Shown here one piece after another: positions 35,146 through 36,023 of a stretch of DNA of 64,000 nucleotides. The position numbers were made by a program, and so were the translations under genes. Origin of the DNA: a phage; the sequence record PZ019086.1; one strand, written 5' to 3'. Positions within the stretch are counted from its first letter, which is position 1, and each line of letters opens with the position of its first letter. Below the pieces are notes generated by a model. That model made no database searches and was not told where the DNA came from. It saw nothing but the letters and a program-made list of their open reading frames with translations.

Positions 35146-35165
35146 CAACTTTATGCAATCTTTGG

Positions 35166-35194
35166 AAAATAAAAAAGGACTCCCGAAGGAGTCC
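35166..35194 (-). terminator. Rho-independent terminator (minus strand) after the small basic ORF
   Basis: GGACTCC-TTCG-GGAGTCC hairpin followed by TTTTTTATTTT on the minus strand. Confidence 0.7.
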
Positions 35195-35199
35195 TTAAC

Positions 35200-35376
35200 T
35201 TATGCTTTCTGCTTACCAAAACGAGAAGCATCATCTCGAAGAACCGCACGTGCTCGGCGCATGATCTTCTCAACAGTTTGATTGATACGAGAGTTCGACC
35301 CACGCTTGTAACCAGCGCGTTTAGAATCACCAACTTTCTTTTCAACTGCTTTCTTTGCTTTAGCTTGTTTTGCCAT
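35200..35376 (-). CDS. Small highly basic protein, about 57 aa
   Basis: ATG at 35376 (MAKQAKAKKAVEKK...); Lys/Arg-rich; ORF-track N-terminal extension not preferred. Confidence 0.55.
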   Translation of the reverse strand: MAKQAKAKKAVEKKVGDSKRAGYKRGSNSRINQTVEKIMRRARAVLRDDASRFGKQKA

Positions 35377-35774
35377 TATAAATTCTCTTTTAAATGAAAA
35401 TGCAGGACTTATTGGCATTGCCTGCGCAAGCCCTCAAGGGGAACATAGGTTTTTGAATATTTAACGACCAGGATAACCATAAACCCGTCATCATACCTTA
35501 TAGCTCTTATCTGTTGCACACCGTTAGCTTAAAGGTTCCGGGTCCGATTTCTCGAGGATAAGATATATACTGATGGATATATAGGCCTTGAGGCGTACTC
35601 CCGATTAGCCATCACCTCGGGGTAGCATGCACTTGCCGCTATAAGAATAACATTCAAGAGGTACACCGTAAAACTGCCGGGGTCTTAAAACTATAATGAT
35701 TCGCAAATCATTAATCAGACAGTTCGACGGCTCCTCGATTTTAGCTCACACTAAGGCAGTGAATCTCCAATAAA

Positions 35775-36023
35775 TTACTTCAGTGTTACCACAAAGTGAC
35801 GAACTGCTTTTCGTGCAGCAGAAGCCAGAGGCTTAGCATATTTAAGTTCATCTTTTTCCTGAAGCTCAGCAGCTAATGCAGTTTGAGCAGGATTCAGATG
35901 TTTGAAATAACGCAGGATTTCAAGAGCTTCGGCTTCAACATCAATAGATGCGCCATAGTTTTCGTGACCATTATTCCATGCGTTTCGTTGCAGTTCAAGA
36001 GCGTGTTGTAATTGTTTAATCAT
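35775..36023 (-). CDS. rIII: rIII lysis-inhibition accessory protein, 82 aa
   Basis: 82 aa; matches remembered T4 rIII (MIKQLQHALELQRNAWNNGHENYG...). Confidence 0.9.
   Translation of the reverse strand: MIKQLQHALELQRNAWNNGHENYGASIDVEAEALEILRYFKHLNPAQTALAAELQEKDELKYAKPLASAARKAVRHFVVTLK

Follow-up and report, generated by a model that had tools for sequence, protein, structure and literature searches.

The stretch of DNA analyzed here (the window, 64,000 nucleotides (nt) of the phage sequence record PZ019086.1) raises a simple question: what is kept in the gap of 398 nt that separates the genes rIII and 30.9? The window is a T4-like (Tequatrovirus) genome, with vB_Eco_F25 and SHFML-11 among the phages 99% identical to it, and the list of open reading frames (ORFs) together with the T4 annotation gives the order cd, 31.2, 31.1, 31, rIII, the gap, 30.9 and 30.8 on the minus strand. 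A first-pass annotation, made from the letters alone, had described positions 35420-35775 as a GC-rich island and had proposed a structured non-coding RNA, a decayed mobile element or pseudogene, or foreign DNA. We have found that the first of these proposals is strongly supported for the central 153 nt only (35495-35647, minus strand, the same sense as rIII and 30.9), where the covariation among 33 distinct homologues reveals a conserved structured RNA module, hereafter R. The gap is a mosaic made of R and of three or four small hairpin modules that look regulatory.

We have built a covariance model, R1, from the homologues of R. Applied to the window it gives one match only, which is R over its full 153 nt (174 bits, E = 2e-37). 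The compensatory changes were supplied by divergent copies, those of Karamvirus EnC07, Slopekvirus mtp5 and the IMG/VR contigs L020, L024 and L025. RNAalifold, run on 21 distinct sequences, gave a multi-branched fold with both sides changed in 23 of 41 pairs; the final structure, curated by hand after this step, has 44 pairs, 24 of them changed on both sides. In the curated structure 96.4% of the alignment cells form a standard pair, versus 27–42% when the 3' partners are slid by 1–3 columns, and none of 500 shuffles matched the observed value on any of five measures. The pair counts also indicate the strand. G.U pairs were found in 64 cells against 9 for A.C, an excess that identifies the minus strand, the sense of the neighboring genes, as the functional one. 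We are highly confident that R is a genuine RNA structure maintained by selection.

The predicted fold, as shown by the comparison of the homologues, is a four-way junction closed by a stem (P1), with a loop-loop contact between two of its arms (P2 and P3). All the parts are given here on the minus strand. P1 pairs the 5' strand UAUAGC (35638-35643) with the 3' strand GCUAUA (35499-35504), and its five modelled pairs have all changed on both sides across genera (AUAAAC/GUUUAA, UAUAGC/GCUAUA, CAUAC/GUAUG and UAGUAG/CUACUA). The P2 arm (35584-35637) starts with an invariant base of 3 base pairs (bp), GGC/GCC, continues with a near-invariant asymmetric internal loop (AAGUGCAU at 35627-35634 and CUCAAG at 35587-35592) and a bulged distal helix of 10 bp, completely re-paired in mtp5, L024 and EnC07, and ends in the apical loop L2 (UGAUGG, 35609-35614). 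Within the internal loop, the pair U17/A65 becomes G/U in four lineages. A GGCA/UGCU hairpin that RNAalifold had placed at the 5' end was dropped in favor of this long-range GGC/GCC pairing and the distal helix. P3 is a hairpin (35564-35583) with a stem of 6 bp and a loop that holds L3 (CCAUCA, 35571-35576). The P4 domain (35505-35563) consists of the P4 stem UCUUAUC/GAUAAGA, the hairpins P4a and P4b, and a joiner. P4a is variable, with a GAAA loop in this phage, while the P4b loop (GAACCUUUAAGCUAA, 15 nt, 35524-35538) and the joiner GCAACA (35512-35517) are near-invariant. Compensatory changes affect 5 of the 7 pairs of P4 and 4 of 4 in P4a, and in P4b a C-G pair is replaced by U-A in the Slopekvirus/Pseudotevenvirus type. 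The junction between P1, P2, P3 and P4 is perfect, with zero unpaired nucleotides where the arms meet.

A scan for covarying unpaired columns singled out the apical loop of P2 and the loop of P3. The L2 and L3 hexamers are perfectly complementary in 33 of 33 distinct sequences, and also in GAP161 and JC221, and they come as six different pairs: UGAUGG/CCAUCA in this phage, CGAUGG/CCAUCG in the Klebsiella, Enterobacter and Citrobacter types, CUAUGG/CCAUAG in Serratia phages, CAAUGA/UCAUUG in contig L024, UGCAUU/AAUGCA in Slopekvirus and Pseudotevenvirus, and UGUAUU/AAUACA in the Yersinia phage JC221. Shuffled loops would give such a hexamer match in 4–19% of cases per lineage, and six independent solutions at one position make a chance origin not plausible. 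A predicted kissing contact of 6 bp between L2 and L3 is thus shown by complementarity, the covariation being silent on whether it forms within one molecule or between molecules. The top two pairs of P3, as first assigned, were superseded by this contact after the mutual-information scan.

About 55 positions of R are invariant, and they cluster in the P2 internal loop, the pairs proximal to the junction (GGCC, UAUA), the P4b loop and the joiner. The P4b loop keeps the pattern GGA.CC....GCUAAC.G and the joiner the sequence UGUGCAAC, with GCUAAC.GUGUGCAAC invariant in the P4 domain. P1, the P4a loop and the distal sequences of P2 and P3 drift freely. The strongest sequence constraint, as shown by the alignment, lies on the internal loop of P2 and on the hairpin loop and joiner of the P4 domain. 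Neutral positions have diverged and the core has not, which indicates long purifying selection and not a recent horizontal spread.

We have examined how R is distributed among phages, in a comparison that included Jiaodavirus-like phages, Kanagawavirus CIP9, Moonvirus Merlin and Muldoonvirus PS2. R was 92–96% identical in the listed T4-like phages of Klebsiella, Enterobacter and Citrobacter and 84–86% in Serratia phages, and the gp31 proteins of those same phages were only 62–70% identical to that of this phage. They hold R in the same gap, from rIII to the 30.9 homologue. The sequence flanking R cannot be aligned between those genera, and the conservation across genera begins and ends at P1. 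Some 440 phage records carry the type of R found at the rIII locus, versus about 1,400 with a gp31 homologue, and overall about 460 sequenced genomes, from at least nine phage genera, contain R. R1 gave no match at the gp31 loci of Proteus (Bragavirus), Acinetobacter, Aeromonas and Vibrio phages, nor at those of Dhakavirus MX01, Mosigvirus JK42 and Slopekvirus phiKp_12. Three DNA patterns searched on IMG/VR and one on metagenomes found only T4-like contigs of the same types. None of the first 120 bacterial-genome matches listed for a 15-base pattern fits R1, and we take them as chance matches. A DNA search of 5,426 E. coli genomes gave no match to R, and in plasmids there were only chance matches of 26–30 nt.

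The comparison with T4 is particularly clear. Its gap is 244 nt long, with flanks about 98% identical and a clean absence of about 155 nt (the missing piece corresponds to about 35504-35638 of the window), and R1 finds no match in the T4 rIII region. An identical sequence in T4 that is a plain spacer, considered in the first-pass annotation as the outcome that would speak against a special element, exists for the flanks only (about 240 nt), since the core is missing from T4. RB32 (L204 1520-1598) and Tequatroviruses of its type have neither R nor the stretch of 125 nt after rIII, and their spacing from 30.9 to rIII is only about 80–120 nt. At least three length classes of the rIII-30.9 gap circulate in one genus, Tequatrovirus.

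R has also been found at a second locus. In Pseudotevenvirus GAP161, in Slopekvirus mtp5 and phiEap-3 and in the Yersinia phage JC221 it is located after uvsY.-2, facing the convergent uvsW.1/uvsW. This is the end of the uvsY transcription unit; from R to a bidirectional terminator there is neither 30.9 nor any conserved ORF. In Slopekvirus phiKp_12, from a genus that holds R beside uvsY, a tRNA-Met follows directly after the rIII homologue (L197 4612-4688), the position that R occupies elsewhere, which suggests that the gap accepts small RNA genes. The boundaries at P1, the precise absence from T4, the mobility relative to the neighboring hairpins and the second locus show, in these genome comparisons, that R is an autonomous module.

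With this structure at hand the other claims made for the gap can be revised. The interval 35420-35775 is indeed free of ORFs of 60 amino acids (aa) or more, the longest being 45 aa (35529-35666, minus strand). Its G+C content is elevated as claimed (43.8%, versus 36.3% for the whole window), with the upper figure of 58% slightly high, as windows of 50 nt range from 34 to 54%; the interval stands at the 97th percentile of all 356-nt windows, and neighboring coding stretches also reach 42–43%. Of the five GC-rich words quoted, four occur letter for letter, CCTCAAGGGG at 35432, CCTTGAGGCG at 35586, CCTCGGGG at 35615 and CTGCCGGGG at 35674; the fifth, given as CCTCGAGG, is off by one base and is actually TCTCGAGG (CTCGAGG at 35551). 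Several of these words are strands of the conserved RNA helices. A pseudogene or decayed gene finds no support: the indels between homologues are not multiples of three, the changes in the helices are compensatory, and no DNA match was found in E. coli genomes or plasmids. Foreign DNA or a mobile element holds in a weak sense only, as R is a discrete accessory module, precisely present or absent, at two loci. Against it, no homing endonuclease or transposase was found among the annotated neighbors of R in the loci read (a Seg-like endonuclease of GAP161 is about 2.4 kb away), and no target-site duplication was obvious by eye at the T4 and window junctions.

R does not code for a protein either. 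Its homologues differ by indels of 1, 2, 4 and 7 nt, and those of 1–2 nt break every reading frame; the longest ORF is the one of 45 aa, for which no protein-level homology search was made. Many GenBank phage records place on R from one to four short CDSs labelled as hypothetical proteins, for example XNO91942.1 of Roth04 (L002 2546-2737). These are probably false gene calls.

We have searched for R among the known RNA families. Rfam 15 gave nothing in R at E values up to 10, either in a scan of 2.3 kb or in one of 186 nt (best score 11.8 bits against a threshold of 55), nothing in R of the divergent members L008, L020 and L016, and nothing at gathering score in the whole window. The first-pass annotation had seen no tRNA cloverleaf, and ARAGORN likewise found no tRNA or tmRNA in the window, nor in L008, L020, L024 and L025; the 3' side of P1 is without CCA. 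The T4 tRNA region (rnaC/rnaD), scanned with R1 and filters off, gave a best score of 6.9 bits, located elsewhere. Several local likenesses were considered and rejected. The P2 internal loop fits neither the K-turn nor the loop-E consensus by eye, the resemblance of P4 (CUUAUC...GAUAAG) to P1 of SAM-I is coincidental, with no model match, and a P4b loop that mimics the tRNA-Lys anticodon loop or an anti-Shine-Dalgarno sequence is contradicted by the Serratia phages, in which the relevant bases vary. No description of R was found in open-access text, its literal sequence included. R apparently matches no known RNA family and is undescribed.

The rest of the gap and its borders are occupied by shorter elements, again all on the minus strand. 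Upstream lies rIII (35775-36023), which codes for the lysis-inhibition accessory protein according to the ORF list and the T4 annotation. In the stretch of about 125 nt downstream of rIII, carried among the loci compared only by this phage and T4, inspection of the sequence found a hairpin AAUGAUU-UGCG-AAUCAUU followed by AUAGUUUUAAG (module U, 35695-35712). It resembles a weak terminator, and the terminator scan did not call it because its stem is AT-rich. A promoter-like match, TTTACG-N17-TATTCT (35672-35644), agrees at 5 of 6 positions in each hexamer with the T4/PST early-promoter consensus of the papers on promoter-early stem-loops (PeSLs); it is below the scan threshold and was read by eye, and the T4 deletion removed its -10 part together with R. 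A PeSL is a stem-loop located directly upstream of an early promoter, TTTACW-N17-TAYWAT, which is followed by a Shine-Dalgarno (SD) sequence and a start codon (PMC4122927). Here the hairpin and the sub-threshold promoter-like match are found in the flank, and what comes next is R, not SD and ATG. PeSL cassettes mediate indels at module borders in plastic regions of T4-like genomes (PMC2839356, PMC4122927), and the flanks of R are similar in being short, shuffled hairpin and promoter-like modules in a plastic zone with indels at the module borders. R itself does not look like a PeSL: instead of one stem-loop with a sigma-70-type early promoter it is a pseudoknotted multi-helix fold of 150 nt.

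On the other side of R, module A (35458-35492) was recognized by comparison by eye as a hairpin with a conserved loop (of the GGUUAUCC type, also of the GGUUGUAGGUCAUCC type) followed by CGUUAAAUA. It is located downstream of R in this phage, EnC07 and Merlin (and is also in T4), while Roth04, CIP9 and the Serratia phages 4S and PS2 have it on the upstream side. Module A is kept across genera, and its stem seems to covary, as judged by eye. It may act as a promoter, as an RNA signal, or in both ways. Module B1 (35427-35442) is a small G+C-rich hairpin, CCCCUUGAGGG, followed by CUUG, and this is its sole copy in the window. In most genera it follows R at once or after a short distance, and it does so at the uvsY locus too (Slopekvirus, Pseudotevenvirus); in EnC07 it precedes R. 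Its stem covaries by eye (CCUC-UUA-GAGG, CCC-GAAA-GGGG). Module B2 (35402-35425) is a hairpin, GCAGG...CCUGC, that immediately precedes the ribosome-binding site in the 5' leader of 30.9; other genera have at this position a longer hairpin with a different stem (GGGAGC...GCUCCC; GGAAC...GUUCC). T4 also has both of these 30.9-leader hairpins, B1 and B2. B1 could be a translational operator or a processing site. Late-promoter-like variants of TATAAATA were noticed upstream of R in mtp5 and GAP161; they are imperfect and we have drawn no conclusion from them.

The small basic ORF that had been noted downstream is gene 30.9 of T4 (35200-35376, 58 aa, function unknown). Its product matches PHROG 1427, also of unknown function, and has no match in Pfam, NCBIfam or the PDB. 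A recognizable RNA-binding partner of R was looked for in gp30.9 and was not found in those searches, and 30.9 also occurs without R (T4, Aes508). The ORF can be extended upstream to 72 aa (35200-35418), as annotated in RB32 (L204 1301-1519), versus 58 aa in T4; the extension would cross the conserved leader hairpins, and for this the short form seems right. A strong intrinsic terminator located after 30.9 by the terminator scan (35175-35196) is where a transcript that includes R would first meet a clear end. It explains the weak Rfam matches to Atu_C8 (32.5 bits) and Phe_leader at 35161-35244, which are not true members.

What R does has to be read from this pattern. The reading that we prefer, with a probability of roughly 0.6, is that R is a stand-alone accessory non-coding RNA gene of about 145–150 nt, highly structured and acting in trans. 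The boundaries at P1, the absence from T4 and RB32, the reshuffling of the modules and the second locus are more easily explained by a self-contained RNA gene than by a leader of 30.9. R would be transcribed in the sense of its neighbors within the rIII/30.9 transcripts, and possibly trimmed to the core closed by P1. It would then work in trans as a compact tertiary fold in which the kissing loop and the four-way junction hold the invariant surfaces in position, the unpaired nucleotides of the internal loop and of P4b being the binding surface or pocket. The partner, perhaps a small molecule, the ribosome, the RNA polymerase, or a protein of host or phage, would be something common to all the hosts, which are only Enterobacterales, or to these phages. 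The benefit might be, for example, in host takeover or counter-defense, and would be accessory and not essential because T4, T2 and T6 lack R.

Several points weigh against a stand-alone RNA gene. The folding energy of a single R sequence is no better than that of shuffles (z = -0.6 to -1.2), and it is the homologues in other phages, and neither composition nor folding energy, that make R significant. We found for R no promoter or terminator of its own that would be convincing, and a transcript started at the TTTACG-N17-TATTCT match would begin too late to include the 5' strand of P1, in conflict with the good support for this stem. Wherever R occurs at the rIII locus it is upstream of 30.9 and in the same sense, so that a role in cis is possible there. 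T4, T2 and T6 thrive without R. Its transcription, processing and stability are inferred from sequence, and its partner and benefit are pure inference. The claim of novelty has its own caveat, since a study that catalogues over 10,000 candidate structured RNAs of viruses (PMC10690425) does not mention T4-like phages in its text and R may be listed in its supplement.

The closest alternative would make R a cis-acting leader, a riboswitch-like sensor or protein-binding operator that acts on 30.9 and the 30.x genes downstream of it, at the level of translation, stability or read-through. The aptamers of the lysine (L-box) and purine riboswitches have a multi-helix junction closed by P1, kissing loops between P2 and P3 and invariant unpaired nucleotides, and in the lysine riboswitch a turn at an internal loop of P2 brings the loops together. 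R shares with them the P1-closed junction, the P2-P3 contact and the invariant unpaired nucleotides, so the conserved aptamer with covarying helices that is general to riboswitches is present. The constant location before 30.9 at the rIII locus, the conserved hairpins in which the 30.9 leader is itself rich, and the strong terminator after 30.9 point in the same direction. However, R has no sequence or covariance-model similarity to those aptamers and no Rfam riboswitch family matches it, it has no unpaired nucleotides at the junction, no known ligand and no expression platform that we could find. The consistent 5'-leader position seen at rIII/30.9 is lost at the uvsY/uvsW locus, where in Pseudotevenvirus, Slopekvirus and JC221 R follows uvsY.-2 and no conserved gene comes after it before the bidirectional terminator. 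T4 and RB32 retain 30.9 without R, the distance from R to 30.9 and the modules between them vary, with module A before or after R, and a conserved alternative pairing that competes with the 3' strand of P1 was not seen by eye in eight genera, no dedicated tool having been used. We consider a cis-acting leader unlikely. Little more can be said for a self-cleaving ribozyme or RNA-processing module, whose cuts in polycistronic transcripts would part rIII from 30.9 or shorten the uvsY transcript, and to which we give only a slim chance. Small ribozymes are common in phage DNA, R is independent of context and sits between genes of one transcription unit, and its perfect four-way junction with conserved internal loops resembles the natural hairpin and four-way twister-sister ribozymes. 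But no Rfam ribozyme family matches it, it is bigger and has more invariant positions than most small self-cleavers, and none of the characteristic core sequences was recognized by eye.

The kissing contact allows another view, in which L2 and L3 would pair between R molecules to give dimers or rings, an RNA-only or RNA-protein assembly like the one that the phi29 packaging RNA (pRNA) forms through two interlocking loops. The covariation proves complementarity, not its intra- or intermolecular nature, and P2 is far longer than P3 (about 22 versus 6 stacked layers), so that P2 would have to bend sharply at its internal loop for the contact to be intramolecular. The conserved asymmetry of this loop would supply exactly such a bend, as in the lysine riboswitch. 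The pRNA has a three-way junction, pairs its loops between molecules into a ring on the portal, is essential and is located near the genome end of Bacillus podoviruses. R is similar in being a phage RNA of about 120–170 nt with a multi-way junction and two drifting loops kept complementary, and differs in being accessory, with a four-way junction, in T4-like myoviruses, without an Rfam match at E up to 10 and without a link to packaging genes. Multimers of this kind seem to us improbable as the main role of R. Least probable is that R matters as DNA (a recombination cassette, an origin or a selfish insert), as a decayed gene or as an unannotated small protein, with an incidental RNA fold. Its precise presence or absence, the change of locus, the plastic zone of a type tied to PeSL cassettes (PMC4122927) and the short CDSs annotated over R in several GenBank records would agree with it, but the excess of G.U over A.C is strand-specific as expected of RNA, 44 base pairs and a pseudoknot have been maintained through compensatory change, the small indels disrupt all frames between homologues, and the loci read have no annotated endonuclease or transposase beside R and no obvious target duplication.

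Returning to the stand-alone RNA gene, R can be set beside other structured RNAs of phages. The rnaC and rnaD RNAs of T4 (species 1 and 2), dispensable for laboratory growth, are like R small non-coding RNAs of T4-type phages; unlike R they are located in the tRNA cluster and have tRNA-like features, and T4 has both of them but not R. GOLLD and ROOL, often found near tRNA genes, are like R orphan and highly structured phage RNAs, but are several-fold larger, belong to other bacterial groups and have no model match here. They are large ornate RNAs that assemble through kissing loops (bioRxiv 10.1101/2024.12.08.627333), and the function of rnaC and rnaD is still unknown (PMC9697503). A more ambitious proposal, which we hold as tentative and rather doubtful, is that R represents an undescribed class of trans-acting RNA with a tertiary structure of riboswitch or ribozyme grade, an accessory gene of the T4-like phages of Enterobacterales whose pocket would bind a small molecule or host factor, or catalyze a reaction, for host takeover or counter-defense (for example as an RNA decoy or sponge), possibly as multimers through L2/L3.

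Few viruses have been studied as intensively as T4 and its relatives. R has been overlooked there because T4, T2 and T6 lack it and because annotators leave the gap empty or place spurious short CDSs on it. At the least, the R1 model can mend the annotation of hundreds of genomes. The carriers of R include many therapeutic Klebsiella and E. coli phages, and pairs of nearly identical phages with and without R exist naturally, this phage and T4 differing here by one clean indel of 155 nt. An RNA that maintains a pseudoknot and 44 base pairs, with about 55 of its nucleotides invariant and a sequence conserved in the manner of a tRNA, must do something specific. Should R prove to be catalytic, or to bind a metabolite or a host factor, the conflict between phages and their hosts in Enterobacterales would gain an RNA participant.

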